DNA of 21,900 nucleotides from Nannocystales bacterium. Its GTDB lineage: Bacteria > Myxococcota_A > Polyangia > Nannocystales > Nannocystaceae. Position 1 is the first letter of the stretch. Each line of letters starts with the position of its first letter. Positions 1,495 to 21,283 of this stretch are shown here, one piece after another. Where the stretch lies: positions 1-21,900 of the forward strand of contig JBOEGF010000074.1 in NCBI GenBank assembly GCA_050633305.1, in the 5' to 3' direction. The notes under the pieces are model-generated. The model was not told the origin of the DNA. It saw only the letters and a list, made by a program, of their open reading frames with translations, and made no database searches. Both the position numbers and the translations under genes were made by a program.

Positions 1495-1500
1495 AGTATA
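1495..1500 (-). promoter_or_regulatory. Putative -10 box (TATACT) of the lipoprotein gene
   Basis: AGTATA on + reads TATACT on -, 8 nt before the ATG at 1486. Confidence 0.45.
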
Positions 1501-2351: not shown

Positions 2352-2361
2352 GCGCCAGATA

Positions 2362-2390: not shown

Positions 2391-2530
2391 GGGCCACCAC
2401 CACCCCGTCAGCCTTCGAATTCGACGCTCGACCAGAAGCCACCCTATTTGGCACGAGCAAGGGGCCTCGGAGCGTGGCTGCTTCGGCGTCGGGCGACCTC
2501 GCCCGCTCCGGTGCTACGCTCCGCCCGTCC

Positions 2531-3556: not shown

Positions 3557-3573
3557 CAGAGCCTCCCGTCCCC

Positions 3574-3677
3574 CTGTGAAAATGGGGGTCGTTTTCCTAA
3601 ACGCAGGCTACCGGCGGGCCCCTACGGGCTCTCCGCGGCCCCGCCATCGGCGTGTGTAAAACGGTCCTTTTTCACAG
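3574..3677. promoter_or_regulatory. Pair of dyad sites, candidate res subsites for the serine resolvase
   Basis: CTGTGAAAATGGGGGTCGTTTTC (3574-3596) and TGTAAAACGGTCCTTTTTCACAG (3655-3677). Each is partly palindromic and they are inverted relative to each other. Confidence 0.5.
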
Positions 3678-3733
3678 CGCAGATCAGAAGCGCTTGCCCC
3701 CCTCAATCGCTCTTCTTGTCGATACGGTCAAAG

Positions 3734-4426
3734 CTAGTCGCCGGGCTTCATCATTCCGTGGCGCTGTTCGATTACGCAGATATCCTGGAACAACATCTGC
3801 GCCTCAAGGCAGATGTCGGCATACACGGTGTCCAGCTCTTCGAGATGCTCCGAGTCCCGGATCCACGCCTCTTCGGCGAACAGCTCTTCCAGCTTGGCTT
3901 GCATCACGCCAAGTTCAAGCGTCACCGGTTTCTTGCGCTCGCCGTAGCGGAAGTAGGTTGCTTTGTTCTGTTCGACTTCCGACAGTTGCTCGCCGATCTC
4001 TGTCAGCTTGACGAGCAGTTTACGCGGCTCATGGTCGATCGTGCCCAACGCCGCTCGAAGCTCGTCCACCAGGACGTCGAAGCGGTGAATGAATTTCGGC
4101 TCCTCGAGCGCCGGTGGCTTTGCCGTGCTCGGGTCTCGCCTCAGCTGCTGCAACCAGGCTCGGTCCCGTTTGATTTCGTACGCCGACGCAATGAACTCCT
4201 TCACCGCGAGTTCGAACGCGTGCCGCTGCAGATAGGCGATGGGCGCCGCGATCACGTCGAGCCTGCCCGTCGCGGCGCTTGCGATGAGACGGCGCGATCC
4301 GAGGAGGTAGGAGTACGAGACCCTTAGCTCGTCGAATTTCCATCCGAATTGGGTCGTTGTTTCTCCGGCGCGCGTCTCGCCCCAAAAAAGAATTCCGGCG
4401 TAGAACTCGGGCTCCTTCGGATTCAT
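3734..4426 (-). CDS. Hypothetical protein, HEPN-like helical fold
   Basis: D.IAAPIAYLQRHAFELAVK, H.FDVL and a late FRY motif match the pattern P..(F/Y)L.RH..EL..K...H.L..L...FRY seen in HEPN-like proteins. Confidence 0.6.
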   Translation of the reverse strand: MNPKEPEFYAGILFWGETRAGETTTQFGWKFDELRVSYSYLLGSRRLIASAATGRLDVIAAPIAYLQRHAFELAVKEFIASAYEIKRDRAWLQQLRRDPSTAKPPALEEPKFIHRFDVLVDELRAALGTIDHEPRKLLVKLTEIGEQLSEVEQNKATYFRYGERKKPVTLELGVMQAKLEELFAEEAWIRDSEHLEELDTVYADICLEAQMLFQDICVIEQRHGMMKPGD

Positions 4427-4629
4427 CGCTGCAAGTCTGCGAGCTCCGCGACGTGTTGCCTAGCAGCACGAGCACCTGCGCAGCGGCTAACAACCATCCC
4501 GCGTCGACACTCGACACAGGCCAACTCGTCCCTCCCATTCGCCCTCGCCTCCCCAAGCCCAGACCGCCGTAAGGATTCGGCCGGCTCGCCGGTCGCAGCG
4601 ACGACCGCGAACGCCTCGGCTTCGATCAC
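4423..4629 (-). CDS. Possible small hypothetical protein
   Basis: 68 aa with a CxxC motif. Its stop overlaps the next ATG (ATGA). No family recognised. Confidence 0.25.
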   Translation of the reverse strand: MIEAEAFAVVAATGEPAESLRRSGLGEARANGRDELACVECRRGMVVSRCAGARAARQHVAELADLQR

Positions 4630-4656
4630 GCTTTAACGGGGAAACGTGACTGAACC

Positions 4657-4938
4657 TCAGGGCCGTCTGATTCTAAAGTTCGCGCCGCTCCATTCAACCA
4701 TCCAACCCGCTTCTCGAGCCTCCTGCTCGACGGCACGGAGAACGTTCTCTGAGACATGCACCCAACCCCGCCGGACGCTCCCTGGTGTCCTGGTGTCCTG
4801 GAGACGCTCAACCCCGACGTTGGTGTCTATCAAGTATTCGTCTGCACCCGTATCGAAGTGCGCTTCGATGGCCTCAACGATCGAGACTCGGAGCTTCTTC
4901 TCCTCGGGTGGAATCTCGATGGCCGAAGGAGGACGCAC
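4657..4938 (-). CDS. Small hypothetical protein
   Basis: 93 aa with protein-like composition. GTG start overlaps the upstream TAG and follows a GGAGGGAGG Shine-Dalgarno-like sequence. Confidence 0.6.
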   Translation of the reverse strand: MRPPSAIEIPPEEKKLRVSIVEAIEAHFDTGADEYLIDTNVGVERLQDTRTPGSVRRGWVHVSENVLRAVEQEAREAGWMVEWSGANFRIRRP

Positions 4939-5129
4939 TACACCTCCCTCCTGGTCATCGACTCCGTCTCAACGTACTTCTGGAGAGCCTCCTTGAACGC
5001 CTTTCTCGACTCGGTGGCCAGCATGCTGTGCTCGGCCGTGTGTGTTTTCTGAATCGAGGTCGCCACCACCGTGGCCACGTTGGAGATGTAGGCAGCCAGT
5101 TTTTTATCGACCTCATCAATGGTGCTCAT
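4938..5129 (-). CDS. Small helical hypothetical protein
   Basis: 63 aa with an amphipathic helical pattern, coupled to the downstream ORF. Confidence 0.55.
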   Translation of the reverse strand: MSTIDEVDKKLAAYISNVATVVATSIQKTHTAEHSMLATESRKAFKEALQKYVETESMTRREV

Positions 5130-5271
5130 GGTCGATGGATCACACCACGCGCCAGCGATTCCCTACGCACCGATTCGAGAAACACTGTTACTCCCCTCGC
5201 TGGAGCTTCCCGGAGGCAACGACGGTCAGCCCAGGGCAAGCGACGCCGTAGAATACCAAGCCCAGATCCCA

Positions 5272-6174
5272 ATGTTCTACGAACCCCTCCGTACGCAGGC
5301 CCACTTCGAGAGCCGCATCAAGCTGAGCGATAACGGCGCGACCGGCACGCCAGAGAGCATCCACCTCGACTTCAAGCACACGATAAAGATGGGGGAGCAG
5401 TCGGAGCAGCGGGAACTCGCACGGGACGTCGCCCAGTTCGCCAACACCGACGGCGGCAGCCTCATCATCGGTGTCGACAGCCCGAAGGACCCAGCAACCG
5501 GCCTCGACACGGCCAAGGCTCTCGTCCCCCTCCCGGACGAGGGGAAGCTAGTAGATTGGCTCAACAGGGCGCTGAGCAACTACCTCTACCCAGCCACTCA
5601 CCGCCCACGCCCGCTCTTCTTCAGCCCCTGGGGCAAGAGCAAGGTGGCCGTGTTGAACGTGGAGCCCTCCGATGTGCTCCTTGCCGTTTTCCGGCAATCC
5701 GAACCACGTTCAGGGATCGAGTACGTCTACCGAACGGACCAAGGCAAGGAGTGGTTCACCCCCGAGGAAGCTGCAATGCGACTGTCAGATGCAAGGACGA
5801 GAGCAACCAGGATCAAGATGGAGCGCATCCTCCACGCACGCGCAGCGAACGAGGCAGCAAGAAAGAACCGTGTCGCCCTCGTCCACCCGATCGCTTCTTG
5901 CACGCTTGACGCGAACAACCGCGCAGAACTTCGGCCACAGCCAGGCTTCTGGGCGAGCATTCCAGAGCTGCACGAAGATGAGTTCATGCTCATCATCTTC
6001 GACGGCGCAGGGAATTGCGGACTGCCCCCCATCTACGTGCCCTACCACTACGTCGAGCACGCGTGGAAGCAGTGCGACGGCATGCTCGCCCTTGAGCTGA
6101 AGTTTCAGATCGCGATGGCGCCATCGCGGGACGGATGGAAGCTGTACCCCCCCGAGCGCGGACCGTCTCGTTGA
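5272..6174 (+). CDS. Schlafen/AlbA_2-domain protein with unrecognised C-terminal domain
   Basis: ESIHLDFK...ELARDVAQFANTDGGSLIIGVD is the AlbA_2/Schlafen signature, followed by a YVYRTDQG strand. Start placed at ATG 5272 (TAGAAT -10 at 5249-5254); the ORF track starts it at 5119. Confidence 0.88.
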   Translation: MFYEPLRTQAHFESRIKLSDNGATGTPESIHLDFKHTIKMGEQSEQRELARDVAQFANTDGGSLIIGVDSPKDPATGLDTAKALVPLPDEGKLVDWLNRALSNYLYPATHRPRPLFFSPWGKSKVAVLNVEPSDVLLAVFRQSEPRSGIEYVYRTDQGKEWFTPEEAAMRLSDARTRATRIKMERILHARAANEAARKNRVALVHPIASCTLDANNRAELRPQPGFWASIPELHEDEFMLIIFDGAGNCGLPPIYVPYHYVEHAWKQCDGMLALELKFQIAMAPSRDGWKLYPPERGPSR

Positions 6175-6218
6175 GGCAAGCGCGTACCAACCTTCTCAGC
6201 ACCCAGATCGCCCTCGAC

Positions 6219-6250
6219 TCGGTCACGCTTCCCCCCAAAAGCGTGACCGA
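6219..6250. terminator. Perfect 12-bp hairpin between convergent genes (terminator or protein-binding dyad)
   Basis: TCGGTCACGCTT-ccccccaa-AAGCGTGACCGA. There is no clear U-tract. Confidence 0.45.
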
Positions 6251-6451
6251 ACACGCCCCTGATCTCGACCGCTACGACGAGGTGCTGGAGTCCGCCAGCC
6301 CACCGCTACCCCGCTACCGCTCCCCGGTCCGGGCAACGCTGCGTTGTTCCGGTTCCACGCTTTTGGTCGGAGCGAGGTGCATGGGAGGCTTGAACGTGGC
6401 ATCCGGGCCGCTGGCTCGCTGCTGCGGGAGACCTCCGGTCCGGGATCTAGA

Positions 6452-6982
6452 CTAGCTCCACTTCCGCAAGAACGTGTTCCACAGACGAACAGTGCCTGGC
6501 TCGTTCAGCGTAGAGATCGAACCCGACCACAGTTTGAGCAAGTACTCGCTTGGGTCCGTGCTGAGCACGGAGAGAAACGCTCCCTTTGGGAAGAGATCCT
6601 CCGCGCGAGCTCTCTTCAGAGCAAGCACAAGACCGTCGAAGCAGCTATCGACATGCTGGAGGAACTCCTCGTCGCCCGTATCTTCATCAGGAAACCGAGC
6701 GTAGAGGTTCTCAAGAGCGCCTCGCATATTGGCGTTCGCTTCCGTGAACGGCTCCATCTCTTCATCGCATGGCCAGTCGACCGGCGTGAACAGAAGATCG
6801 GGGTCTGCACTGCCCTGTATCTGGTCGACCGTAACCATCATGCAATAGAGAGTCCCCAGTTCATCGTCGGTGCACAGGGCAACCCCGGCAATGTCACTTC
6901 CCACGTTTCTCTGAAGAAAGACGTCGCGCGCTCGCACCAGCCCGTCGAACACGAGTTCATCGAAACGTGCCCGTTCGGTCAT
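6452..6982 (-). CDS. DUF4303-like protein, putative cognate immunity protein
   Basis: ALCTDD...L, F.P.DW, LVLALKRARAE.LF and D........I..LN match the DUF4303 pattern. Acidic protein whose ATG overlaps the toxin TGA (ATGA at 6979-6982). Confidence 0.75.
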   Translation of the reverse strand: MTERARFDELVFDGLVRARDVFLQRNVGSDIAGVALCTDDELGTLYCMMVTVDQIQGSADPDLLFTPVDWPCDEEMEPFTEANANMRGALENLYARFPDEDTGDEEFLQHVDSCFDGLVLALKRARAEDLFPKGAFLSVLSTDPSEYLLKLWSGSISTLNEPGTVRLWNTFLRKWS

Positions 6983-8103
6983 CTTCGCGCCGCCTCGCTC
7001 AAGAACGTCCGAAGCAAAGAACCGAAGTCTTCGGGTGTCCCTCCAGCTTCATCCAGGAAGCGCAAACGCTGAAGGATCTCTTCCATGGCAGCGGTAGTGT
7101 GCCCCTTGTTGGGCGCCCAGCCAAGGTTTGCCAGGCCCCAGATGGGGTCGACGCCAGCGCGGCGGCGAACGATATCCTGTGCGTCTGCCACGACCTCAGC
7201 TTGGCGGCCAGGCATCCCCTTCTTGTACACGCCATGGTGAGCGTGCGGACGATACATTCCTCGGGGAGCCGTAGTTCCCGTCAGGCGCCTCAAGTAGCGC
7301 CCCCACTTGAACGAATCCGACGGAAGAGGTCGCCAGGGCCCGTGAAAGTCACCATGACGTGCAGGTGGGAGAGCTTTGTAGGACGGCCCAGGTCCGAGCG
7401 GGATAGCTCCGTTGACCCGCTTCACCGAACTGCTTGGCACTCGCGTCAGCGCCCGGACAGACTCCGGCGACAGGCTCTGCGACGGCGTCCACGCTCTCGG
7501 TCTCGGCGCAGGTAGCTCCGCCGCCATCGCCCCCACGCTCCGAAACGACCCGCTCCTCGACCGCGCCCGTCCGGCAACGATCGCCTCCGAAAGCGCAGCA
7601 GACTCGCCGCGGGCGATCGAGGCAACTGTCGACCAGCCAAACTCTCCAGCCGCGACAGCTGCACGAACCTCCATGGCCGCAGCGGCGCCGCCGTAGACCA
7701 TCCCCGCAATCTCGGCCCCCGAAGAAACAACCTCCCCAGCCGCAGCGACGCCTCGCTCCAAGTTCCCCGTCTCAACGGCCTGAGCGAGGTGCTGCACCCC
7801 TGTGTCGAACCGTTGTGGTGCCGAGAGGCCGGAGCCCAACAGGTGCGATGAAGCGACAGCGCACCCCTGACTGAGAAGCAACGGAGCCGTCGCACCGCGG
7901 ACATAGAGCTCCGCCGCATCGCCCGCAGTGTCACCGGCAAGCCTCGAAACTGCGGCGTTTGCTCCCGACGCAGCCGCCTCCCGCCCCGATGAGATCGCGT
8001 CCCCAGCGGCACCGTATCCAGCACGCAGGGATTCGCCGGCGCTCGCGAGCCCTTCGATAGCGCTCGTTTCCACATCGGCAAACCAATCGCCAATGCCCTG
8101 CGT
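6979..8103 (-). other. Predicted released C-terminal effector (374 aa): Ala/Gly-rich helical region plus AHH-type HNH/EndoVII nuclease
   Basis: Follows the Rhs cleavage motif PVGHVDRTG (Gly codon 8104-8106). AHH at 7234-7242, followed by GVDP...NL...PN.GH. Confidence 0.7.
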
Positions 8104-11100
8104 GCCAGTTCGATCAACGTGGCCAACGGGATCGCAACGACAGTAGCCATAGCGGTTCAGCCCGTCTCCGAGCCCGATTGGGTCCGCGCTGCACCACCTT
8201 CCCAACCAGCTCGCGAAGTACCGCCACCCGTGCTGTGCGAGCCCCGTCTCCTCGTCCCGCTCCATCCCCGTGAACCGGTACCGGTTCACATCCACATCAA
8301 CGTCACTGCGGACAGCCCGATACGCCGTCGTCCCGTACGGGTGGTATTCCTCGTACGACACCACACCGCCGTCCGCGTCGACCTCGAGACTCGTGCTGCC
8401 AAGGTGGTTTCCCAGCGCGTAGCGGTACAGCGGTTTCGGCTTCGATACCGCCTTCCGATCTCTGCGGAGCTTCGTGTCAAGCGTTAGCCCACCGGGCGCA
8501 TGCTCGGTGAACGTTGCCTCGTCGACCTTCTCTTCATCAAGCGGGTCGCTCCCGACGAACTTCCGGAACTCCTCGACCCCGCCGACGTAGACCCGCTCCT
8601 CGGTGCGGCCTCCTTTGACGGTCCACTTCCGAACGCGAGCGCCATCGACGTACTGGAAGAACACCTCCGTCGTCCCGCGACGCACCCGGCGGAGCTGGTC
8701 GAACTCGTCCCACTCCATCTCGTCGAGGTGGGGCATCTGCATCCGTCCGAACTCGTCGTGCGGGTACAGCTCGGGTGTAGGCGTCTTCCCGACCGCACTG
8801 GCTCGCAGCCGATTGCCGTGCTCGCTGTACTGATTTCGTCGCGTCCAGGCCCCGGCGCTGTGCCGCACCGCGAGCTGATGACGCAGCTCCAGCAGGTTCC
8901 CGTGAACATCGTAGCGGTACCGCTGCGTGTAGTTGCGAACCGCCGTGACGTCGTTTGGCGCCGCCACCCGCTGCAGCGCGGTATCGGTCGGCCCTCGCCC
9001 CGGACCGCCGCCTGGCAGCTGGCCATGGTGCTCGCGTCCACTCGCCTCGACCAGGCGATAGAGCGTGTCGTAGCGGTAGCGCGTAACCGGCTCGACACTC
9101 TCGCCACCGGTCGTCACCGTCTTGTGCGCGCCGTCGCGGATCCGGACGATGTTCCCGGCAGCGTCATAGACGTATGACAGCGCCTGCAGCGTCTTGCTGC
9201 CGGCCTTCGACGTCATCGACGCGAGCCGCTGCGTTTTCGGGTCGTAGGCGTAGGCCGTGCGCGCCTTGCCGCGCTTCACCGCCGTCGCTCGACCGAAGAT
9301 GTCATAGCCCTCGACCTCGTGAATGACCTCCGCGCCTCCTCCCTCCGCGTCGATGCGCGAGACCTGCTTGGGCAGCCCCTCCTCTGTGTACTCGTGCACA
9401 TGCCGAGCCCCGTGCGGGTTCTGCGACTGCACGAGCCGGCCCTGCGCGTCGTACTGGGCACTCGACTCGAAGCCACGCTGCGTCTCCAGCAGGTCGGCCG
9501 CCGCCGCATCGAGTTCGGCCACCGACGTGCACCCCACCAACACCGTCCAGTCGGGCCGCTTCGTCGGGTCGGCAGGGAGGACCCTCAGTGTCCGCTCGAC
9601 CCCGCCTTGGTGGTCGTACTCGAGCAGCGACTGCAGACCGCCGCCATCATAGACCCGCAGCAGCCGGCCCTTGTGATACGTCGAGGCGTTCACGGCCTCG
9701 CCGGGGTCGACCTCGGGCGCCTCGTCGACCCACACCCGATGCTTCACCACCGCCGAGCTGCCGTCGGCATCGGCAACGACGAAGTCGCTCACCGGGCGCC
9801 GCAGAGCGTCGTAGCTCGAGAACATCCCATGCCCTGAGCCGACCGGTCCACGCCGGGCATAGAGCACCGACCCATCGACGTTTGGAACGCTCGCCGAAAC
9901 ACCGCCGTCAACACTGCGCGCTTGCAGCTGCAGGCCGCCCAGGCCGAAACGCCGCTTCTCAGCAACCCGGCCGTCGGCGTCGATGGTCTCAACCGCATTC
10001 CCGGCCGCGTCGAAGTGCGTCCGCGTGACCACCATCCGGTGCTGCGTCTCGTCGCGCAGTTCGGCGAAGACCGCGTGCGTCCGGCCGAGAGCATCGAACC
10101 GGACGTGGCTCCCCGTCCCCGCGTGCAGCTCCAGGTCGGCCTTCTCGCGGTCGTCGAGTTCGCCCTCGAACCCCTCCTCGCCGGCGGTGTCGTTGCGATC
10201 GAAGACGACCTGCCCCCAGGCGTCAAACTCGGTTCGCTCAACGGTTCCGTCCCGGTACTCCACCCGGACCGGGCGCCCCAAGTCATCGTAGTGAACCTTC
10301 TTGACCGGGTCTCCGCTGACCACCGCGTAGCTGGGCCCGCCCTCGCTGGGGTCGAAGCTCGAAACAGCCTTGCCCTTGTTGTTGACCGCCTGGTGCCCGC
10401 CCGTGCGGAACCGGGCCCCCTCGATCTTCGTGCGGGTCTGCAACGCCGCCCCCGACCCGCTGTAGTAGGTGATGCTCGTGTGTTCGTGCGCGCTCGCCTT
10501 CGGCTCGGGCAGGCGCTTGTGCTTGCGGAGCTTGAAGTGCTCGTGGCGGGTGTGGACCGTCACCGAGACCGGCTGGGCATCGAGGTCGTACTCGATGCGG
10601 GTCGCGGGGTCGTCTTCAGTGGTCCCCTCCCCGTCCACGCCAAAGCTCCATGTTTTCGTGACACGCCCCAGAGCATCGAAGCGCACGTTCGATTCCACGC
10701 CGTTCGCCCCCACGACCCGCTTGGCACCAAGCGTCCGCAGGTCGAACTCCGAGCGCACCGTATTGCCGAGCGCGTCGCTGGCCTCGACAGCGAAATAGGC
10801 GTCCTCGTCATAAGTCACGGTCGACGCGTTGCCGAACGCATCGAGAGCGCGCTCCAAGAGGAAGAACTTCGACGGATCGTGCTCGGCCGTCCCCGAGGGC
10901 GCCCAGAGCAGGCCCGCATCCTTGACGTAGGGCGAAGCATCCAACCGCTCTTTCGCGAGACCGTCTCCGCCAAAGACCGAACCCCATTGCGCATCGCTGA
11001 GAACCGCGCTGTGACTGGAGTGAGCAATTCCCGTCCGGCCGATGCCCGAGGGGGCCCCCGAAGCCTTGCCACCGAACGGCCCCGCGACGTCGTCGTCGAA

Positions 11101-14100
11101 GAAGTACGTCCGGTCGTGACTGAGAAGCTCGCCACCACCCATCCCGCGCAGCGCCCCCATCGAGAACGGGGCCGCGGAGTCACCGGACTGTCCCGTGACC
11201 GCGAAGCTGCGCGTCTCGGCGACCGCCCCGACGCGATAGTGGTCGGGCTTGTCCTCGTCGAAAACGGTCACGACCTCGCTCCGCACAACCTCCGTCCGCA
11301 GCTGCGGGTCGTCGGAGGGAGCGTCCGAGGTGGTCAGGTCCGGGTCCGGCGGCGCCTCCGGGCCGGCGTCGGGTTTCGAGATACCCGAAGGGTCGTCGAT
11401 CTCCCCACTGTGCACGTCGACCCGCACGGTCCGGGTCATCCCCTTCGACCACGCGTCGTAGACCCCATCGCCTTTGCCCAGCAAAGGCCCCGGCGGGGCA
11501 GGCTCAGCTTCGGTGTCGAACAGAAACAGCTCGACCCGGCGGTTGGCGGGCTCGGCCGTGTCGTCGGGCGTCGGCACGGCGAGAAAGCTCTCCCCGGCGC
11601 CCACCGTTTTCACGGACACGCCCGCGGGCAGCGATGCCCCCGCATGTTGAAAGTAGGCCTCGACAAGGGAGGCCCGCTGCTCCGTAAGCCCCGAGGCCCC
11701 CTGCCCCGCTGCGAAGGCCTCGAAGTCCGCATGCCCCAGCGCGGTGGCCATGTGGCCATCCTCAACCTCGCCCCAAACCCCGATGCCGCTGCCCTCGTAC
11801 TGCGACAGCCACACCGCGACATCACCACGCAAGAGCGCCCCGACCGTCTCCGCGCGGGCGACCGAGAGCGCCGCATTGTCGTCCAGCTGCCCTTCGGTGT
11901 CGGTGTGTCCGACCACCACCACCTCGGCGCCGGACCGCTTCTGATGCAGCGCCTGCGCCGACCTCAGCCCCGGCAGCGCCGCGGGCAAGACGAAGCTCTT
12001 GGCCTCCTCGAACATCACGCCGACCAGCTCGACCCGCACCCCGGTGTCTTCCTCCGGGTCATCAGGCCCGATGGGCTCGACGGGATTCAGCGGCAGCGAA
12101 GGCTCAGCCGCCGCCTTGCGCCGCGGGTAGGCCACCTCGATGGTTTTCAGAGGCACCCCGAACTTGTCCACTTCGAGCACCGCGCTGTGGCTCACCCGGG
12201 GGTCTGGCGTCTCCTGGCGCTCATAGCTGTACGACAGCGACTGCTCGGCCACCGTCAACAAGCAGCGGTGGTCATCTCCGCCACCCACGCTCTTCACATC
12301 GTAGCCGTGGACGGAAATCGCCAAAGGCCGGTCCGCCACGTCCTGGGCCGCCGCCTTTGCCTCGTCGTCCGCTCCCGCGTCGAGGCCCGGCCGTATCTCC
12401 GCGTACGACTCGCTGCGCAGCAGCATCCCCTTGAGCGCTCGGGCGACCTCGGGATCCCCCGCGCCGGGCTCGGGGAGCGAGACCACGCTGGGGTCGTAGT
12501 CCTGGTTGTACTCGGTGGCGTAGAGCTCGGACAGCGTGCCAGCACCCGGCGGCACGATCCCCGTGTGGAACCACGAGCGGGTGAACGTCCGGGGGATGGC
12601 GTCCTCGAGGGCGTAGGACTGCCGAACGGACGTCTTCTTACCGCTGCGCTTCTCCGCCTTCGCGGCCAACAGCGCCAGGTCCTGCGCATCGCCCTGCTCG
12701 ATGAAGCCAAAGCCCCGGAACTCCCGCTCCCGCGGGTCCCAGAACCCGTGGCGGTAGACATACGACGACGAGAAGTAGAGCTCGGCCGCGTGGTCGTACG
12801 ACTCGAGTTCGGTCACGACGGGCACACACAGCGGAAGCCGCCCGATCGGTGAGGCCTCTTCGGGCGAGGGAAGCAGCGCCGTGCTCGAGCGGTAGGTGAA
12901 GAACGTCTGCAAGCCGATGTTGTTCTCATCGACCGCCAGCAGCATCTGCCGCACCTCTCCCTGCTCGCCGGGGAAGAAATCGATGCTGGTGACAACGGCG
13001 TTCGCTTCCTTCTTGGCGAAGACGAACGACCCCGTCCCCCGCCCCTCGATCCGGCACAGCGACGAGAGTCCGAGTTCCTCGAAAGCTGGAATCGGCAGCG
13101 GCGGCTGAGCAACGAACCCGTTGCCGCTCTCGCCGAGCCAGAGCGTTGCCTCGCCATCCCCCACGACGAGGATGTCGACACCACCGGTGCCTTGCACGTC
13201 GAAGGCCCGGATCCTTCGGGGGTCGATCGCCGGCCCCGCCAAGCCGTCTCGCGTCGGCAGAGACGTATCCGGAACCGGCAGCGGAAGCGGGTCGCCGAAC
13301 TTGCCGTGCCCCAGCCCTGACCACAACGTCGCGTTGCCTTGCTGCAGGTGCACCAAGTCCGGCAAGCCATCCCCGGAGACGTCGACCAGCATCACGCAAG
13401 CGTCGGGGTCAGCGAGCGCATCTTCGGCCTCCGGAGGCATGTCCGGCGTTTCCACGGGCTCCCAACCACGCTCGAGGCCCTCGAAGCGCCAAAGCTCGGG
13501 CTTCGCTCCCTGCTCGGCCACCACCAGCGCATCCGTCCGTCCGTCGCCGTCGAGGTCGCCCCACAATACCCGGGGGAACCCAGTCTCCTCGTCAAGGTCC
13601 GCCTCAGGCGGCACCGACGGAACGATGACGCCAACCGCCCAACCATCGTCGTCCGGGTTGCGCTCCCAGACCTGCCCCGAGCCGCCCGGCCCGAGTTCGA
13701 CCAACGCTGGGCGACCGTCGAGGTCGAGGTCGAAGAACCGCTGGCGGTGCGCCTCGTGACCTCCCGAGGCGGACGCTCCAAACGCGAGAGACTCCGGTGG
13801 AGCGTTCGTCTGCGCATCAACCCGGCGGTGAAAGGAAAACGCACCAAGGTGCCGCACCAACAGGCCCGCAACCGCCCGGCCATCGAGGTCGATGAACTCG
13901 GCATCGGTCAGCTTCTTCGAGAGGTCGAGCCCTTCGAACGCGGGCAACACCCGGACCTGCGGAGCGATGGCCTGCTCGGTGTAGACGAACGTCCGCGGCG
14001 GCGCGGCCAGCTCGCTGCCGCCCTCACCGATGCCAATGTGTTTGACCTCGGTCAACCGCGAAGCGACCTCGTCCAGGTCGTAGGAAAGCTCGACGCGCGA

Positions 14101-15168
14101 GACCAATAGGGTTTCCCCGCCCAAGCGATGCAGCACCCGAACGCCCCGGCACAGCCTCCGCGTCCGGACCTCAAAGCCTGCCCGGCCCGACGAGAACGGG
14201 TCAGGACGCGCGAACCACGCCCCGGGGTCTTCCTGCGCGAGGTCTGCCGAGCCCGGCTGGGCTTCCCAGTCCAGAAGCACCTCGAACAGGAAGTCCTCCG
14301 GCGCCCCCTCGACCAGAGCTTGCATCCCCGCCTCCGAGGCCACGGGGAACGCCTCCTGCGGCGGTTTCCGGTTCGCGTACAGGACTCGTACCAGCACGCT
14401 CTGGCATCCCGGCGCCCGGCCGCCCTCGACTTCGGTGTCGGTGGCGTACTGATAGACCACCGTGTTGCCCAGCGGGTCGATCTGAGCTGAGAGGTTCCAG
14501 CGGAACACTCGGGTCTCGTCGTCGGGGTCGGCCACGCGTGAAGCTGCGTCGAACCCGAAGACCGAAACCACGTTGTTTCCGCTCGTGACGCGCCAGTGCG
14601 AGACGCCCCCCTTCTCCCACCGCTCGATACGAGCAAAGCCCCCCTCGAGCCGTGGCTGATACCGGGTGACAGCGTAGCCGCCCTGCCCTTCTCCGGCCCC
14701 GATCTTCACCAGCTCAGCGGCGTCCGAGAAGATGAAGACGTCCGACTCGGCAGCATCGTCGTACGTCGGCACCCCTCGGGCGCTCTGCCCCAAGTGGGGA
14801 CGCGTCGTGGCCCGCTGGAAGTACGGCACACTCAGCGCCCAACCAAGGCCAAACGGCCCGTTCTCCCCATTGCTGTCGTACCCGAGCCCCAACCCAGGTG
14901 TCAGCGTGCGACCCGGCGGCAGCGGGAACGCAATGCTTCCCGTTGCCGAGCCCATCACCGCGTTGACCGAGAACTTCTCCCCGAGCTTGGGGAGCCCGAC
15001 CCCGCCCTCGGACCCCGCTGCCTCCGGCGTCATTGCCTGTGGGTCCTCGTCGCCCTCGACGTGGATCACCAGCTCATGGTGCTTGCCCGGCTCGGCCGTC
15101 ACCGGCGACGTCTCCCCAGTGGGCAGCAGCCGCACGTTGTGGGTCACATCAGGGCGTGAATCAGCCAT
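6979..15168 (-). CDS. SpvB/TcB-TcC (Rhs/YD) fusion toxin, 2729 aa, with inserted OmpA-like domain and C-terminal AHH-like nuclease
   Basis: SpvB N-terminus (GEKFSVN...G..GPFGLGWALSVP; RPDPFSSGRAGFEVRTRRLC), FG-GAP repeats (DLDGDGRTD, DVSGDGLPDL), TcdB-mid REFRGFG, YD repeats, and Rhs core (GSTSLEVDADGGVVSYEEYHPYG, RYRFTGMERDEETGL, DPIG...PVGHVDRTG). The tail carries PHAHH...NLGWAPNKGH. Extended -10 TGGTAGCCT at 15181-15189 on - supports the start. Confidence 0.93.
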   Translation of the reverse strand: MADSRPDVTHNVRLLPTGETSPVTAEPGKHHELVIHVEGDEDPQAMTPEAAGSEGGVGLPKLGEKFSVNAVMGSATGSIAFPLPPGRTLTPGLGLGYDSNGENGPFGLGWALSVPYFQRATTRPHLGQSARGVPTYDDAAESDVFIFSDAAELVKIGAGEGQGGYAVTRYQPRLEGGFARIERWEKGGVSHWRVTSGNNVVSVFGFDAASRVADPDDETRVFRWNLSAQIDPLGNTVVYQYATDTEVEGGRAPGCQSVLVRVLYANRKPPQEAFPVASEAGMQALVEGAPEDFLFEVLLDWEAQPGSADLAQEDPGAWFARPDPFSSGRAGFEVRTRRLCRGVRVLHRLGGETLLVSRVELSYDLDEVASRLTEVKHIGIGEGGSELAAPPRTFVYTEQAIAPQVRVLPAFEGLDLSKKLTDAEFIDLDGRAVAGLLVRHLGAFSFHRRVDAQTNAPPESLAFGASASGGHEAHRQRFFDLDLDGRPALVELGPGGSGQVWERNPDDDGWAVGVIVPSVPPEADLDEETGFPRVLWGDLDGDGRTDALVVAEQGAKPELWRFEGLERGWEPVETPDMPPEAEDALADPDACVMLVDVSGDGLPDLVHLQQGNATLWSGLGHGKFGDPLPLPVPDTSLPTRDGLAGPAIDPRRIRAFDVQGTGGVDILVVGDGEATLWLGESGNGFVAQPPLPIPAFEELGLSSLCRIEGRGTGSFVFAKKEANAVVTSIDFFPGEQGEVRQMLLAVDENNIGLQTFFTYRSSTALLPSPEEASPIGRLPLCVPVVTELESYDHAAELYFSSSYVYRHGFWDPREREFRGFGFIEQGDAQDLALLAAKAEKRSGKKTSVRQSYALEDAIPRTFTRSWFHTGIVPPGAGTLSELYATEYNQDYDPSVVSLPEPGAGDPEVARALKGMLLRSESYAEIRPGLDAGADDEAKAAAQDVADRPLAISVHGYDVKSVGGGDDHRCLLTVAEQSLSYSYERQETPDPRVSHSAVLEVDKFGVPLKTIEVAYPRRKAAAEPSLPLNPVEPIGPDDPEEDTGVRVELVGVMFEEAKSFVLPAALPGLRSAQALHQKRSGAEVVVVGHTDTEGQLDDNAALSVARAETVGALLRGDVAVWLSQYEGSGIGVWGEVEDGHMATALGHADFEAFAAGQGASGLTEQRASLVEAYFQHAGASLPAGVSVKTVGAGESFLAVPTPDDTAEPANRRVELFLFDTEAEPAPPGPLLGKGDGVYDAWSKGMTRTVRVDVHSGEIDDPSGISKPDAGPEAPPDPDLTTSDAPSDDPQLRTEVVRSEVVTVFDEDKPDHYRVGAVAETRSFAVTGQSGDSAAPFSMGALRGMGGGELLSHDRTYFFDDDVAGPFGGKASGAPSGIGRTGIAHSSHSAVLSDAQWGSVFGGDGLAKERLDASPYVKDAGLLWAPSGTAEHDPSKFFLLERALDAFGNASTVTYDEDAYFAVEASDALGNTVRSEFDLRTLGAKRVVGANGVESNVRFDALGRVTKTWSFGVDGEGTTEDDPATRIEYDLDAQPVSVTVHTRHEHFKLRKHKRLPEPKASAHEHTSITYYSGSGAALQTRTKIEGARFRTGGHQAVNNKGKAVSSFDPSEGGPSYAVVSGDPVKKVHYDDLGRPVRVEYRDGTVERTEFDAWGQVVFDRNDTAGEEGFEGELDDREKADLELHAGTGSHVRFDALGRTHAVFAELRDETQHRMVVTRTHFDAAGNAVETIDADGRVAEKRRFGLGGLQLQARSVDGGVSASVPNVDGSVLYARRGPVGSGHGMFSSYDALRRPVSDFVVADADGSSAVVKHRVWVDEAPEVDPGEAVNASTYHKGRLLRVYDGGGLQSLLEYDHQGGVERTLRVLPADPTKRPDWTVLVGCTSVAELDAAAADLLETQRGFESSAQYDAQGRLVQSQNPHGARHVHEYTEEGLPKQVSRIDAEGGGAEVIHEVEGYDIFGRATAVKRGKARTAYAYDPKTQRLASMTSKAGSKTLQALSYVYDAAGNIVRIRDGAHKTVTTGGESVEPVTRYRYDTLYRLVEASGREHHGQLPGGGPGRGPTDTALQRVAAPNDVTAVRNYTQRYRYDVHGNLLELRHQLAVRHSAGAWTRRNQYSEHGNRLRASAVGKTPTPELYPHDEFGRMQMPHLDEMEWDEFDQLRRVRRGTTEVFFQYVDGARVRKWTVKGGRTEERVYVGGVEEFRKFVGSDPLDEEKVDEATFTEHAPGGLTLDTKLRRDRKAVSKPKPLYRYALGNHLGSTSLEVDADGGVVSYEEYHPYGTTAYRAVRSDVDVDVNRYRFTGMERDEETGLAQHGWRYFASWLGRWCSADPIGLGDGLNRYGYCRCDPVGHVDRTGTQGIGDWFADVETSAIEGLASAGESLRAGYGAAGDAISSGREAAASGANAAVSRLAGDTAGDAAELYVRGATAPLLLSQGCAVASSHLLGSGLSAPQRFDTGVQHLAQAVETGNLERGVAAAGEVVSSGAEIAGMVYGGAAAAMEVRAAVAAGEFGWSTVASIARGESAALSEAIVAGRARSRSGSFRSVGAMAAELPAPRPRAWTPSQSLSPESVRALTRVPSSSVKRVNGAIPLGPGPSYKALPPARHGDFHGPWRPLPSDSFKWGRYLRRLTGTTAPRGMYRPHAHHGVYKKGMPGRQAEVVADAQDIVRRRAGVDPIWGLANLGWAPNKGHTTAAMEEILQRLRFLDEAGGTPEDFGSLLRTFLSEAARR
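11515..12045 (-). other. OmpA/MotB-like peptidoglycan-binding domain embedded in the toxin
   Basis: VMFEEAKSFVLP...VVVGHTDTEGQLDDNAALSVARA...GAGE...ANRRVELF gives the full OmpA_C signature, flanked by Pro/Asp-rich linkers. Confidence 0.88.
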
Positions 15169-15299
15169 CGGGGCGCTCGCAGGCTACCACCGACGTCACC
15201 GGCCCCCGAAGCGAGTTCAACGAGAAGGGACAGGCCCCTGCCCTTCTCGTCAGACGCGATTGCCTCCGCCCTGATTCCTGCCCGACACTCGTGCTCCGC

Positions 15300-16400
15300 G
15301 TGGCGCTCAAACCGATCAAGCTCCGCCTCGACGGCGAGGACGTCCACCTCGTCCCGGCGCGAGACGTGGACCGTTGGGGAGGCTATATGAACGGCCGCCA
15401 CGGCGCCTGGGAACTGACAACCGCGGAGAACATAGGCGACATCCGCCAAGCCCTCATGTGCCCACCGTCCCAGGACACCGAAGGTGTCTACACCGAGCTG
15501 CGCAAGCAACTCGAGGATGGTTCGGCGCTGTTCTTTGAGCTCCCGCCCAAGTCGGTCCCGTTCGACAGTCCGCCAGAGGTCGACATCCGCGACCTCATCC
15601 CCGACGGCCGCGACGACCGAGACAGCAAGAACCCCGACGCCCACGGAAGCCTGCACTGGCTAGAGGTCGTCTGTGTATCCGCCAAGGGAGAGTCGTTCGC
15701 GGGAGCGAAAGCACGAGTGCGACTCCCCGACGGCCGCACTGAGCACGTGACGCTCAGCGGGACTTCGTCCGTCCGCTTCGACGACCTCACAGAAGGTGGC
15801 ACGGCCCTCTTCGAGCTTTCCGGAGACGCTGTTGCTCGGGGCTCGCTCCGGAATCCGGAGGGTACTCGATACGACCTCGGCGCCTCGATCGGCCTGTCAA
15901 CGCGACGCCAGCATGTCCTGGTCGTCCATCCAAACCCCCGCGCGTTCGTTTCCGTCGAACTCTTCGTCGAAGACGAACCGGTGAGCGCAGGGAACTACAC
16001 GCTGACAACCAAGCTCGGAGACCAAGGTGGCCCCCTCGACGGCAAAGAGGCCCGCGCCGACGGCTTTGCGCTCCCCTCTTCGGCGACCTACAGCTTCGAA
16101 CAGGTGACCCTCCCGCCGAGGCCGGCGAAAGAGGATGTTCCGGGCAAGCCCGACGCCCCTATAAACCCCGACGACTCGGGATCCGTTGGCCACGACCCGA
16201 TCACCCACGAGCCCAAGCACCCCCCCGTTCCAGAGGACGCTGTCCGGGTCACGCTGCGCCTTGAGGACGGCTCCTCGCTTCCCGGAAGCATCCAGCTCTC
16301 CCACGCCAAGACAGACGAAGCTGAGGGCGAAGAGGCGGAGTTCACCGGGATCCATTCAACCGGGACCCTGCGCGCTCGATCGCTCCGGATTCCCGACTAG
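15300..16400 (+). CDS. Hypothetical multidomain beta-rich protein with transthyretin/carboxypeptidase-regulatory-like module
   Basis: HWLEVVCVSAKGESFAGAKARVRLPDGRTEHVTLSGTSSVRFDDL resembles the WIEIEL.D..G.P......V.LPDG....G.L module. Start likely GTG 15300 or 15291, since the ORF-track start at 15033 overlaps the toxin. TTGCCT-N18-GACACT lies upstream. Confidence 0.75.
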   Translation: MALKPIKLRLDGEDVHLVPARDVDRWGGYMNGRHGAWELTTAENIGDIRQALMCPPSQDTEGVYTELRKQLEDGSALFFELPPKSVPFDSPPEVDIRDLIPDGRDDRDSKNPDAHGSLHWLEVVCVSAKGESFAGAKARVRLPDGRTEHVTLSGTSSVRFDDLTEGGTALFELSGDAVARGSLRNPEGTRYDLGASIGLSTRRQHVLVVHPNPRAFVSVELFVEDEPVSAGNYTLTTKLGDQGGPLDGKEARADGFALPSSATYSFEQVTLPPRPAKEDVPGKPDAPINPDDSGSVGHDPITHEPKHPPVPEDAVRVTLRLEDGSSLPGSIQLSHAKTDEAEGEEAEFTGIHSTGTLRARSLRIPD

Positions 16401-16805: not shown

Positions 16806-16989
16806 GACCCGGTCTCCCCCTGCCGTGCCCCAGCAAGACCCGCTGAATCGTCCACCGCTTCACGCTGACGTCTCGCGAACAGTTTGAAACGGCGGCCTTC
16901 GAGAGGAGGGCAACTCATGACTCACATGTCGACCGTCGGGCCACTCCGTTGCAGAGTTTTTTTTTCCCGATTTCAGGTCGCCCCGCCTG

Positions 16990-17445
16990 CGTGCGTTCGC
17001 CTCCGTCGATCTGTTCGTCGAGAACGAACCGGTCACGTCCGGGAACTACACACTGACGACCAAACTGGGGAACCATCCCGACGCGCTCGACGCTCGACGG
17101 AAGCCAAGCCCACGCCGAAAGCTTCGTGCTTCCGTTCCCTGCGACGAATCTCTTTGAGCAAGTGACTCTGCCGCCGAGGCGCACGCACAAGACAAGCCCA
17201 ACGCTCCTCCTGCAACCCGACAGCCCCGAGCCGTTAACGGCGATCCGGCGATCCGATCACGCTCAAGTCCAAGCCCGACCCCGTCTCAGCCGATGCGGTC
17301 CGGGTCACGTTACGCCTGGAGGACGGGCCATCTGTCCCCTACAGCATCCAATTACCCCACGCAGGGCGGAGGACGAAGCCAAGGGCGAAGAGGCCGGGTC
17401 CGTTCAACAGGGACCCTGCGTGCCCGCTCCACATGCCCGGATCTC
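16990..17445 (+). pseudogene. Frameshifted paralogous copy of the 3' part (about 15939-16395) of the upstream hypothetical gene
   Basis: RAFASVDLFVENEPVTSGNYTLTTKLG vs RAFVSVELFVEDEPVSAGNYTLTTKLG; FEQVTLPPR identical; DAVRVTLRLEDG identical; STGTLRARS shared. The matches are spread over different frames and there is no start. Confidence 0.9.
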
Positions 17446-17490: not shown

Positions 17491-18978
17491 TTAGAGACTG
17501 ATACGAGCGAGCCAAGCCGGGCCCTGGAGGATCACCTCGTTGCCGACTAGAACCGCATCCGCGTCCGAGAGCCCGTAGATATAGGCGCCCTCTGCACTCG
17601 CGTCGCAACCGTAGACCAACACCCCCGCGCCGGGATCCGGCGAAGCCTCCCAGACCACGTCGAGCATTTCGTCGATGTGAGCGACCCACGCGACCGTGCC
17701 TTGCTCCTCGACCCATTCGTAGCCACAGAGCACCGCGCCGCCCGCTGGTGTCTCGACAACAGCCGCAATCCGTCCGTCGGCTCCTCCGGTTTCAGGAACA
17801 AAGTGCCGCTCGACCTCGACCTCGCCGTCCGGCCCGAGTACCGCGATCCGGAACCCGTCTTCGCCATCCCGCACGGTCGCAGCCAAGAAGCGACCTGAAG
17901 CCTCGGCCTCCTCGAAGCCAAGCCCCGGAGCCACCTCCCACGCGGGCTCACCGTCGGTGGTGAGCTGTGCGAGGCAGGTAGATGGCTCACTGCAGTCCGG
18001 CCGCCCCGACAACGAGACAAGTGCCCCGCTGGGGTGTCCGCCAACGGCGGTCACAGGAGCAGCGAAATCGTGGCGAGAGCTTAGTTCACTCCCGGCGGAT
18101 GAGAAAGCCGCCACCGTTGTCGGGTTCGTGGTCGCCCAAATACGGTCTGTCGTGTGGAGGAACGGCGCGTCAGAGCCTGTGGCAGCAGCACCAAGGACCC
18201 AATCCTCGGTCGGGGACCCATCATCGACGCTGAACGTCGCAGCCCTCCACAGCGGGCCGTTATCGTATCCGACCACCAGCGCATCAGGAAGAGCGTGGGG
18301 TCCGTCAACGAGAGGGAACTCGGTCTGAACGCTCCAGGCCAAGGCCATCTCCTCGGTGACGACGTAGATCTCCCCAACAAGGTCTTCCCCGGGACCCGCA
18401 GCGAAGACGCGGCCGTCACGGACAGTGACGCCGCCCGCTCGAGTCGCACCAGCGGGTACGCTGGCGCGAAAAATGTTCTCCAGCAATGCCGTGATGTCGC
18501 CGCCACCGATGTTGACCGCAACAGTCAGATCATCCTCGGCCTCGTCCTCGCCAGCCACTGCCACTGCAGAGAGCTTCCGGTCACCGTTGTGCTGACTCGC
18601 GAACGGTAGCGCCACCTCGAACGGTGGCTCGCTGAGTTCCGCGATCAAGTCGGGCCCCTCGTAGAACGCGACCCGGTCCGCTCCCTCGGCATCAACCGAA
18701 AGCACCATGGTCTCGTGTTCAAGGACCGTGGCCGGCTCCGCGAATCCATCCAGGGTGAGCGTGATCTCCAACGCCCCGGGCTCGCCCGTGACTGCGGTCG
18801 TCTCCTCGACTCCAGTCGAGGACGCACCGCTACTGTCGGCTGTCTCACCGTCTGTGGCGGGACCCCCCGAGCCCGACGAGGAGCTCGACGATTCCATGTC
18901 CATCGAGTCTTCGCTCGACGGCACGCTTGGAGCGAAGCAGGCACAGAGCATCAACGGAGCGACCCAGAAGCGACGCAT
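17491..18978 (-). CDS. Lipoprotein with Ser/Thr linker, bacterial Ig-like domain and probable beta-propeller
   Basis: MRRFWVAPLMLCA-C lipobox; Ig-like RVAFYEG..LI.E...PPFE...NG.RKLSAVA; repeated G...W strands (DGEPAWEV, LDVVWE). Start ATG 18978; the track starts it at 19014. Confidence 0.8.
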   Translation of the reverse strand: MRRFWVAPLMLCACFAPSVPSSEDSMDMESSSSSSGSGGPATDGETADSSGASSTGVEETTAVTGEPGALEITLTLDGFAEPATVLEHETMVLSVDAEGADRVAFYEGPDLIAELSEPPFEVALPFASQHNGDRKLSAVAVAGEDEAEDDLTVAVNIGGGDITALLENIFRASVPAGATRAGGVTVRDGRVFAAGPGEDLVGEIYVVTEEMALAWSVQTEFPLVDGPHALPDALVVGYDNGPLWRAATFSVDDGSPTEDWVLGAAATGSDAPFLHTTDRIWATTNPTTVAAFSSAGSELSSRHDFAAPVTAVGGHPSGALVSLSGRPDCSEPSTCLAQLTTDGEPAWEVAPGLGFEEAEASGRFLAATVRDGEDGFRIAVLGPDGEVEVERHFVPETGGADGRIAAVVETPAGGAVLCGYEWVEEQGTVAWVAHIDEMLDVVWEASPDPGAGVLVYGCDASAEGAYIYGLSDADAVLVGNEVILQGPAWLARISL

Positions 18979-19153
18979 AGCGGCGACGCTCCCACGACCC
19001 CAGCTGAACCGCAAGCACCCGAGCCATCAGGAGACAGCACGCGACGGTACCGGCTAGGTCCAACGGCCGGCCATGTGACGAAGCCATCAACCGGCCACCA
19101 GCCCCTCTTGCTCGCGGTCGGGTAATTCGGATCAACGGGGGCCTCATAAGGGC

Positions 19154-19934: not shown

Positions 19935-20309
19935 TCAGGCTTGGCGAGCCTCAAGCCATGCCTTGAGTGCCCGCTCAAGAACATAGGACGCCGTTCGCTC
20001 CTCCGTCTCAAGGTACGCTTCGAAGCGTTTCCCAAGTTCGAAGGACACAAAGCCTGTCACACGGCGAACGACGCGACCACTCGATTGCAAGCGATGACTT
20101 CGGGGAAGCTTCCCGAGCTGAGGCTCCTCTGCACTCGGTCTAGGCGCGACCTGAAACGGCTTGGACCTGGCTCGCGTCGGTTTTGCCGGCGCTGCCACTG
20201 CGGGTGCCGGTGTCGCTTCTGGTGAGGCCTCTGCCGGGTCGTTGAGAAACGCTTCCTGCTCAGGAGTCAGGCTGAGGGAAGGTTTCTTCTTCGCTGAACT
20301 ACGCGACAT
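19935..20309 (-). CDS. Ribbon-helix-helix (ParG/CopG-like) partner of ParA
   Basis: Disordered Pro/Ala-rich N-terminus, then RRVTGFVSFELGKRFEAYLETEERTASYVLERALKAWL (strand-helix-helix). Overlaps the parA end and has a GGAGG Shine-Dalgarno. Confidence 0.75.
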   Translation of the reverse strand: MSRSSAKKKPSLSLTPEQEAFLNDPAEASPEATPAPAVAAPAKPTRARSKPFQVAPRPSAEEPQLGKLPRSHRLQSSGRVVRRVTGFVSFELGKRFEAYLETEERTASYVLERALKAWLEARQA

Positions 20310-20985
20310 TGCTCGCCTCCATTTTCAGACCGCTCACGAGTTCGGTGACCAAGGCCTCGATCTCAAGCGCCGCCTTGCCGGTAGCGTTGTAGTCGTGAAG
20401 CCCCTCTCCCATCGAAAGTGCGGCAGGGAAGTCAACACGGTCATGGATAACCTGCGAAAGAGGCTCCACCCCGGCCAACTCAAGTTGCTCCACGACCTCG
20501 CGTGCAAACTTCCGACGAGCGTCAGCTCGGTTAACGATCGTTGCGACAAAAAGCTCCGGCCGGATGCCGGATGCACGCCGTAGAGTTCGAAGCGTGTCCG
20601 CATTGCCCCACAGATCAGCGGGACTGGGCTGAACGGGAACGAGCACAGCATCCACGAGCATCGCCAAGGTCTTGACGAGACTCGTTGTGTGGCCTTCGAC
20701 GCTGAGCCCTCCGACCTCTCGCCCAGGACAATCGAAAACGACGACGTCGTATCCTGAGAGACTCGAGAGGACCTCTGTGATTTGCTCGGGGTGAACGCCG
20801 AGCACAGAGGGACAGGGATGGCCGTTGGAGCGGGCGGCCTTTTCGAAGTCCCTCGCCGTTCCTTGCGGGTCGAGATCCAAGAGCACGACTCGGTGCCCAC
20901 GCCGGCTGAACTCGCATGCCGTGAAGACGGAGAGCGAGGATTTCCCGCTTCCGCCCTTCTGGCCGCAGAACGCAATTCGTCGCAT
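20299..20985 (-). CDS. parA: ParA family partition ATPase (short, type Ib/ParF-like)
   Basis: Deviant Walker A QKGGSGKSS, LLDLDPQG, YDVVVFDCPG, VLVPVQPSPADLW and IVNR. Start ATG 20985 gives 228 aa with no N-terminal HTH. Confidence 0.95.
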   Translation of the reverse strand: MRRIAFCGQKGGSGKSSLSVFTACEFSRRGHRVVLLDLDPQGTARDFEKAARSNGHPCPSVLGVHPEQITEVLSSLSGYDVVVFDCPGREVGGLSVEGHTTSLVKTLAMLVDAVLVPVQPSPADLWGNADTLRTLRRASGIRPELFVATIVNRADARRKFAREVVEQLELAGVEPLSQVIHDRVDFPAALSMGEGLHDYNATGKAALEIEALVTELVSGLKMEASNVA

Positions 20986-21003
20986 GCAATGGGTTCTAGG
21001 CGG

Positions 21004-21120
21004 ACTTGGTCGAGGCACAAAAAAACCGGAGGATTTCGAGGAAGAGACGCTCTTCCGCTTCCTACTGTACGGCTGCCCATGTGTGCTTGAGTTAACTTGG
21101 GTCGACCGAGGTCGACCTGG
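21004..21120. repeat. Degenerate repeats upstream of parA (candidate centromere/operator)
   Basis: Tandem 10-mers GTGTGCTTGA GTTAACTTGG GTCGACCGAG GTCGACCTGG (21081-21120), plus ACTTGGTCGA at 21004-21013. Confidence 0.4.
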
Positions 21121-21283
21121 CATCGAGCGGCTTCGTTCAGCTACTCTGGTTTCGCCTGATCTCAAAAGCGGAAGTCTTGGTTGGTCCAACTGCATGAGCC
21201 GCTAAGGCCTCGGAGGTAAAACGGGCGGAACTCGACTCAATCCCGAGTAAATCAACCCGAGGCTTGGGAAGAGCCGGTGAGCC

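Follow-up and report, generated by a model that had tools for sequence, protein, structure and literature searches.

A 21,900-nucleotide stretch of DNA from a Nannocystales bacterium (GenBank assembly GCA_050633305.1, contig JBOEGF010000074.1; hereafter the window) encodes a protein that, on its domain content, is a fused B and C component of the toxin complex (Tc) type, into whose TcB shell an OmpA-like domain has been grafted. The reading that best explains the observations taken as a whole, to which a probability of roughly 0.45 is assigned, is that the product would be an antibacterial cocoon that acts without TcA, bears a wall-binding arm on its outside and travels as cargo of a type VI secretion system (T6SS) by way of UP, the product of the divergent neighboring gene.

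The TcB domains and the Rhs core with autoprotease motif that mark a Tc-type B/C protein are both present in the toxin. Besides SpvB and the propeller, Pfam recognizes the TcdB midN and midC domains, OmpA and RHS repeats, and on both flanks of the graft the protein matches Tc B/C cocoons in the PDB, with E-values from 1e-93 to 1e-79. Autocleavage is predicted after residue 2355, at a motif like that described previously (PMC8765631). No signal peptide was found in the 2729-residue protein, the N-terminal hydrophobicity of which is 0.16.

The first-pass annotation of the window had described an OmpA_C insertion in the TcB shell at 11310..12115, bracketed by Pro/Asp-rich linkers and itself split by about 65 residues, and had proposed alignment to homologs lacking the insert as the means of fixing its boundaries. 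Each of these points was borne out. In the three insert-free paralogs of the window genome, the YPRR motif is followed by 6-7 residues, a Gln and the next strand. The module was found in none of 120 insert-free homologs, and the turn measures 6-12 residues in 91 of the 95 that could be measured, the other four being pattern artefacts. The graft boundaries were therefore set at residues 1018-1288 (nucleotides 12117-11305), within 5 nucleotides of the earlier estimate, at a site equivalent to the TcdB2 loop near residues 956-977, which is about 22 residues long in TcdB2. All named motifs lie in one minus-strand frame: YPRR (1014-1017), GHTD (1087-1090; nucleotides 11910-11899), LSxxRA (1101-1106), GAGES (1190-1194), NRRVE (1209-1213) and PQLR (from 1288). 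The insert alone matches PF00691 at 39 bits (cut-off 27.2, E 1e-9). As a single sequence the N-terminal OmpA half retrieved no PDB chain at E 1e-4, although profiles did match, and because two separate stretches of the module profile (positions 3-77 and 158-196) align to solved OmpA-C domains, the domain is split by some 63-65 residues. The two linkers consist of Pro, Asp and Glu to 49% and 55%.

The residues expected to contact the ligand are retained. Asp271 and Arg286 of Acinetobacter baumannii OmpA bind diaminopimelate (PMC5974059), and Asp1090 and Arg1105 of the window protein, which are equated with them by motif and spacing, show the same separation of 15 residues. Both positions are invariant in eight fused rows of the alignment, and the Asp/Arg motif is kept in 144 of the 150 best representatives of the module.

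Coverage across the two junctions had also been singled out beforehand as a point to check. Contigs from runs X1 and X3 each span positions 10500-13000, and with them both junctions; they show 108 and 126 differences (identity about 95%). Runs X5 and X6 contribute pieces that bridge the junctions, so that all four runs compared support the graft. Because these independent contigs cross both junctions, the graft is not an assembly chimera. It also occurs in three database proteins at 69-75% identity and in the metagenome loci L088-L091. When 400 genomes of the class were searched with the module profile, the best five candidates per genome being scored, the module was found in 44 genomes and its TcB-fused form in 13 (15 copies), all within the myxobacterial family (f1) of the host; TcB flanks accompany 6 of the best 150 module representatives. 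The 15 copies share one graft site at 36-83% scaffold identity. In a quick tree of the TcB N-part, computed with the insert, frameshifted and partial rows left out and with no outgroup, 13 insert rows separate from 16 insert-free rows with an SH-aLRT support of 100 on a branch of 0.88, a clean split that argues for one old graft event. These comparisons show a single old graft conserved at a fixed site. Furthermore, the ratio of nonsynonymous to synonymous substitution rates (dN/dS) of the OmpA halves is 0.10, 0.15 and 0.17 against three homologs, similar to that of the shell; the graft is under purifying selection, and its OmpA N-half is the joint best-conserved region (55%).

The split OmpA domain with half of a PG_binding_1 domain inside it is a module older than the TcB graft. 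The module is widespread, with 626 clusters at E below 1e-30, and in four of five standalone relatives tested the inner segment scores above the PG_binding_1 (PF01471) cut-off. Among the fused inner segments, 5 of 15 give sub-threshold matches, to the C-terminal half of PG_binding_1 only, and that of the window gives none up to an E-value of 1. The segment opens with 35 family-specific residues, among them W, WG and E positions that are invariant and do not belong to the OmpA motifs. The PG_binding_1 motif is deleted in P0004, and in run X3 three codons (9 nucleotides, in frame) are lost from the inner segment at 11723-11733. The earlier suggestion of a reduced PG_binding_1-like insert thus holds for the family and its origin, but not for the window copy. 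The inner segment is a part that arrived with the donor module, and not a second insertion in the toxin. Since the PG_binding_1 remnant is eroded in the window copy, the OmpA pocket alone is probably used there. Elsewhere, the module precedes PLD, Het-C, PAD and subtilase domains (40 of the best 150 representatives scanned), many of its relatives add further PG_binding_1 copies, and the best PDB matches of its profile include T6SS-associated OmpA proteins.

The graft genes are also set apart by the lack of a TcA partner. Among strong SpvB matches in 60 genomes, one fragment of unclear insert state being left out, 18 of the 27 genes without the insert have a TcA gene within about 2.5 kb, and 20 have one on the same contig; of the 10 insert genes none does. 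With five more genomes added, TcA was found on the contig of none of the 15 copies, several of these contigs being short, and it is absent from all 14 insert loci that have 3 kb or more upstream. Five of the 13 graft genomes (G006, G015, G027, G141 and G364; 82-95% complete) give no TcA match anywhere. In Tc toxins the propeller docks on TcA (PMC11435725, PMC8765631). Between the insert and insert-free clades this is the shared region of lowest identity (28%, versus 41% for SpvB and 36% for the mid domains); within the insert clade its identity is 49%.

Two further parts of the locus appear to come from the same donor. A leader of about 30 residues begins 49 standalone module proteins, and a hydrophobic N-terminus is found in only 8 of 142. 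Scored with the leader profile, each of the 15 N-termini of the insert clade ranks higher than any of the 16 insert-free ones, the leader being absent from insert-free TcB, and two standalone proteins picked by eye match the toxin leader at their N-termini (51%, 7%). As for UP, the window gene was found with a profile built from standalone module proteins only (E 2e-28), in homolog P0012 UP and the toxin form one fused protein, and by hidden Markov model (HMM) it adjoins 6 of 19 insert loci, compared with 0 of 19 insert-free loci. When the UP profile was built without the tested genes, it matched the G014 gene (E 8e-6) but not the UP-like genes of G015a and G002; a comparison of UP with P0105 gave 1.9% only. 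UP falls into no Pfam or NCBIfam family (one sub-threshold match to MalQ_N) and only into unnamed Atlas clusters. The leader, UP and the split OmpA module appear to belong together, and the toxin would thus have taken up the set. Neither the missing TcA nor the leader and UP had been noted in the first-pass annotation.

Beyond the Rhs core, the members of the clade differ in their tips. In L088, identity is 91% as far as the core, beyond which lie a WHH-like tip and then a SMI1/KNR4 gene, whereas G364, only about 40% identical, has the tip type of the window and then a DUF4303 gene 34% identical to that of the window. Other tips in the clade are MPTase5, Ntox43, DUF7587, TNT and papain-like, giving at least seven types overall. 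A conserved carrier, swapped tips and matching predicted immunity genes show the pattern of polymorphic toxin-immunity systems, and the lineage likely kills bacteria. In the window tip, AHH and a later Asn and His are invariant in eight rows, and no match was found in Pfam, NCBIfam or the PDB; it is AHH-like by motif only, with reference to the motif table of PMC3482391.

The position of the arm is suggested by size arithmetic. Without the insert, the shell spans about 1960-1984 residues in four clade proteins, compared with 1962-2039 in 7 of 10 insert-free proteins, the other three being longer, and the cargo measures 324-399 residues in 12 clade members versus 219-379 in 10 complete insert-free proteins. 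Natural cargos stay under about 35-40 kDa (PMC6868009, PMC7861908). Cargo and insert together (38.6 and 27.8 kDa, about 66 kDa) exceed this limit and so should not both fit inside; moreover, the long Pro/acidic linkers fit a tethered domain. The OmpA arm is thus very probably located outside the cocoon. The cocoon would be made in the cytoplasm together with its immunity protein and would cleave its own cargo, after which it might be exported on a VgrG/PAAR spike through the leader and UP. Once there, the arm would probably bind diaminopimelate-type peptidoglycan and hold the cocoon at the target wall by the inner membrane, in place of docking on TcA. For passage of the cargo across the membrane, the remodelled propeller and the Gly/Ala-rich front of the cargo are candidates.

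Evidence for the spike comes from relatives of the module. Two of the 40 representatives scanned carry it fused to PAAR (P0105) or VgrG (P0113); P0105 runs from PAAR through a sandwich and a leader-like stretch to the module. At L177, a leader-module gene comes immediately after the C-part of a VgrG that has a DUF2345-like region and a sandwich extension, in a layout resembling that of enteroaggregative Escherichia coli (EAEC), in which VgrG carries Tle1 by loading through a transthyretin-like (TTR) domain of VgrG (PMC10433429). In addition, TssC is present in all 13 graft genomes. Export on a VgrG/PAAR spike via the leader and UP may occur, with odds that fall slightly short of even.

Several observations weigh against this reading. 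TssC is found in 26 of 35 members of the family anyway, and related genomes do not count as independent cases. G011 and G039 contain standalone modules, and in both genomes (89-90% complete) TssC and VgrG fall below cut-off; strict dependence of the module on T6SS is thereby rejected. Genes for VgrG or PAAR are missing from all 19 insert loci and were seen at only 4 of about 45 standalone loci, three of them near-identical. Tc cocoons have four turns, whereas known T6SS Rhs effectors have three (PMC8765631), so that the load would be larger than any described T6SS Rhs cargo. It is because of the TssC background, G011 and G039, the missing spike gene and the four-turn size that type VI export is preferred and yet uncertain. 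The donor set itself is also open to objection: homology of the leader is weak (17% in the HHalign profile-profile comparison, with 3 of 15 above all 600 shuffles), and UP is undetected by HMM at 13 of 19 insert loci, five of which have less than 1.2 kb upstream and two of which have a UP-like gene by eye. Finally, the PG_binding_1 half is decaying in the window copy, the close copies in G002 and G014 are frameshifted in their assemblies, and TcA is encoded elsewhere in 8 of the 13 graft genomes. An extracellular contractile injection system was also considered as a general route and rejected, its tube gene being present in two of five genomes and not in G000.

The main rival to type VI export keeps the outside wall-binding arm and the lack of TcA, and has the toxin released by lysis or in vesicles, whereupon it would stick to the exposed peptidoglycan of prey or siblings. 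The lack of a signal peptide, the standalone modules in genomes without detectable T6SS and the lack of a spike gene beside the insert loci all agree with this, as do the likely plasmid-type nature of the window contig, known also for bacteriocins, and the link between a phage lysis cassette and Tc toxin action in Yersinia (PMC9718411). However, no holin or endolysin gene was recognized in the window, and the fusions of the same module to PAAR and VgrG speak for a spike; release of this kind is rather unlikely. Alternatively, the module could be a trafficking or docking domain for a protein, be it a secretion machine, UP or a receptor, with the OmpA motifs kept for the fold or for an internal ligand. 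Its position ahead of many unrelated cargos, the invariant W, WG and E residues, the T6SS-associated OmpA proteins among its best PDB matches and the dispensable PG_binding_1 half would all be accounted for in this way. Retention of the ligand Asp and Arg in 144 of 150 representatives and the extra PG_binding_1 copies in many relatives would not, and this explanation is considered improbable.

Less probable still is that the cocoon docks on a TcA encoded elsewhere and that the arm is an extra tether only. While the propeller has been kept and conserved within the clade, and eight genomes do possess TcA, five give no match to it, including G015, which is 95% complete in 10 contigs and holds two copies of the toxin; moreover, the three TcA genes of G000 are matched by three insert-free TcB genes, and the propeller is the most altered of the shared parts. 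As for an assembly chimera or a neutral, non-functional insertion, which the metagenome-type assembly and the two frameshifted relatives might bring to mind, this can be set aside as already refuted by the independent contigs over the junctions, the 15 copies at the same site and the dN/dS of 0.10-0.17. A bolder extension of type VI export, which is speculative and on balance doubtful, is that leader, UP and split OmpA form an undescribed loading and anchoring kit for hundreds of myxobacterial and other effectors, and that in one lineage a whole Tc cocoon was diverted from the TcA injector onto the type VI spike, whereby a eukaryote-type toxin chassis became a wall-anchored antibacterial weapon. 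The kit would then be present in two pieces, the leader at the N-terminus and OmpA in a shell turn, that may re-join when folded.

Compared with known systems, the window toxin shares SpvB, propeller, TcdB mid domains, Rhs core and a cargo of 30-40 kDa with the Tc cocoons TcdB2-TccC3, TcdB1 and YenB-YenC2, but it differs in the fusion of B and C, the 270-residue domain in a loop, the N-terminal leader, the downstream immunity gene and the lack of TcA. SpvB, propeller, RHS and variable tips are likewise common to the polymorphic toxins of the TcdB/TcaC type (PMC3482391) and to the TcA-paired SpvB-Rhs proteins of myxobacteria. Zhang et al. (2012) defined the TcdB/TcaC class with a signal peptide and, in the accessible portion of that paper, place OmpA solely at the very C-terminal end of PVC toxins (PMC3482391); the window toxin has no signal peptide and carries its OmpA domain in the interior of the chain. 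With the T6SS Rhs effectors RhsA, Tse5, Tse15 and RhsP, and with Tle1 loading in EAEC, the system has in common the cocoon, the autocleaved tip and the immunity gene, as well as orphan tip cassettes (G015) and a sandwich-domain partner. Unlike these effectors, it lacks PAAR, a transmembrane domain and Eag, has a four-turn Tc-type shell with propeller, and is linked to the spike only through fusions in other proteins. Finally, the graft resembles the OmpA-C domains of A. baumannii OmpA, Pal, PA0833 and TagL in its GHTD, LSxxRA, GxGE and NRRVE motifs and in the ligand Asp and Arg, yet it is split by a 63-residue segment, made in the cytoplasm without signal peptide or membrane anchor, and borne by a toxin.

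Each part is of a known kind; what seems to be undescribed is how the parts are arranged and that TcA has been lost. Neither an OmpA domain within TcB nor this module is described in the literature searched, which did not extend to supplements or subscription papers on Tc structures, although examples might be listed in the domain tables of PMC7861908 and PMC3482391; the accessible portion of PMC7861908 does not mention OmpA. Both the role of TcB/TcC genes that lack TcA and the action of Tc cocoons on bacteria find in this clade a direct test case, in which the putative targeting domain is known by name, two of its residues can be knocked out and a predicted cognate immunity gene accompanies the toxin. 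The clade also provides an instance of a Tc-type shell sequence interrupted by a folded domain, and the large uncharacterised module found at the head of varied enzymes could be the hallmark of a class of effectors that predatory myxobacteria secrete. A second connection between Tc cocoons and T6SS is possible at L081 (G035:C112, 4176-11826), where a VgrG gene lies 2 kb upstream of an SpvB-TcB gene that has neither the insert nor a TcA partner.

Table 1. Features of the toxin locus (window coordinates).
Feature	Position	Strand	Basis or remark
Fused SpvB-TcB-Rhs (B+C) polymorphic toxin gene, 2729 aa	6979..15168	minus	one open frame
N-terminal leader, about 30 aa (residues 7-38)	15055..15150	minus	resembles standalone split-OmpA leader; weak to moderate scores
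SpvB domain, residues 70-348	14125..14961	minus	PF03534, 197 bits
FG-GAP beta-propeller (TcA-docking part in Tc toxins)	12955..13968	minus	Pfam, clade comparison
Graft, residues 1018-1288 (271 aa), 27.8 kDa	11305..12117	minus	replaces 6-12 residue turn after YPRR
N-side Pro/acidic linker	12037..12117	minus	
OmpA-C N-half with Asp1090 (GHTD) and Arg1105, 15 apart	11824..12036	minus	PF00691 and profile
Inner segment: family-specific W/WG/E element and eroded C-terminal half of PG_binding_1	11635..11823	minus	
OmpA-C C-half (GxGE, NRRVE) and conserved module tail	11404..11634	minus	
C-side Pro/Asp linker	11305..11403	minus	least conserved part (31% within clade)
Rhs core with autoprotease motif, residues 2275-2355	8104..8346	minus	TIGR03696, 81.6 bits (NCBIfam)
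Cargo, 374 aa, 38.6 kDa, AHH-like (HNH-type) tip	6982..8103	minus	tip by motif only
DUF4303 gene, predicted cognate immunity protein	6452..6982	minus	Pfam; overlaps toxin stop
UP gene: helical N-domain, carboxypeptidase-regulatory/transthyretin-like sandwiches	15291..16400	plus	divergent to toxin
Degenerate partial duplicate of UP 3' part	16981..17429	plus	

The window is the whole of a 21.9-kb contig (C74) of an 11-Mb genome with 66% G+C, and the named near relatives of the insert-free paralog are proteins of Nannocystaceae and Polyangiaceae. Outside the toxin cassette it carries, in order, a CsrA-like gene (130-387), a resolvase (1746-2381), an Rpn transposase (2474-3556), ParA with a small partner (19935-21195) and a shared end region (21284-21900). 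The contig is likely a plasmid-type element, of a kind that is rare in myxobacteria. The same toxin, UP, ParA and CsrA-like gene are found on G006:C1 (57.9 kb, at twice the coverage), which has a 141-bp terminal overlap also common to another contig, and at 800-11500 of which (L086) there is a run of small single-membrane-anchor genes and large unknown proteins. ParA or shared ends occur as well on the small G000 contigs C60, C46, C48 and C65, which bear near-identical cassettes; these comprise genes for two kinases, a sigma-54 activator and VgrG, together with two further genes downstream, and 568 bp are common to C60 and the window end. Flanking the toxin cassette are a Cys-rich myxobacterial lipoprotein (587-1516), an unknown gene (3734-4426), a Schlafen/AlbA_2 protein (5119-6174) and a secreted repeat lipoprotein (17491-19014).

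Orphan Rhs tip cassettes follow both G015 copies of the toxin (L047, 3245-5982; L048, 778-4802), with small immunity-like genes beside them, one of which is barstar-like. When the 9071 predicted proteins of G000 were searched with the leader profile, 6 of the top 14 were matches of the OmpA profile (27 in all), and OmpA-like proteins with the same leader and no signal peptide lie at C8:15765, C65:592, C65:23741, C40:84220 and C20:123553. Short UP-like genes stand beside a LysM-like or peptidoglycan-binding gene and large unknown genes at C5:434953-440103, C2:299185-302180 and C20:121331-128849 of the same genome, and by eye the C5 set looks like an adaptor, an effector and an immunity gene. 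At L051 (6125-8349), four to five tandem pairs of near-identical small lipoprotein-like genes lie upstream of a UP-module fusion.
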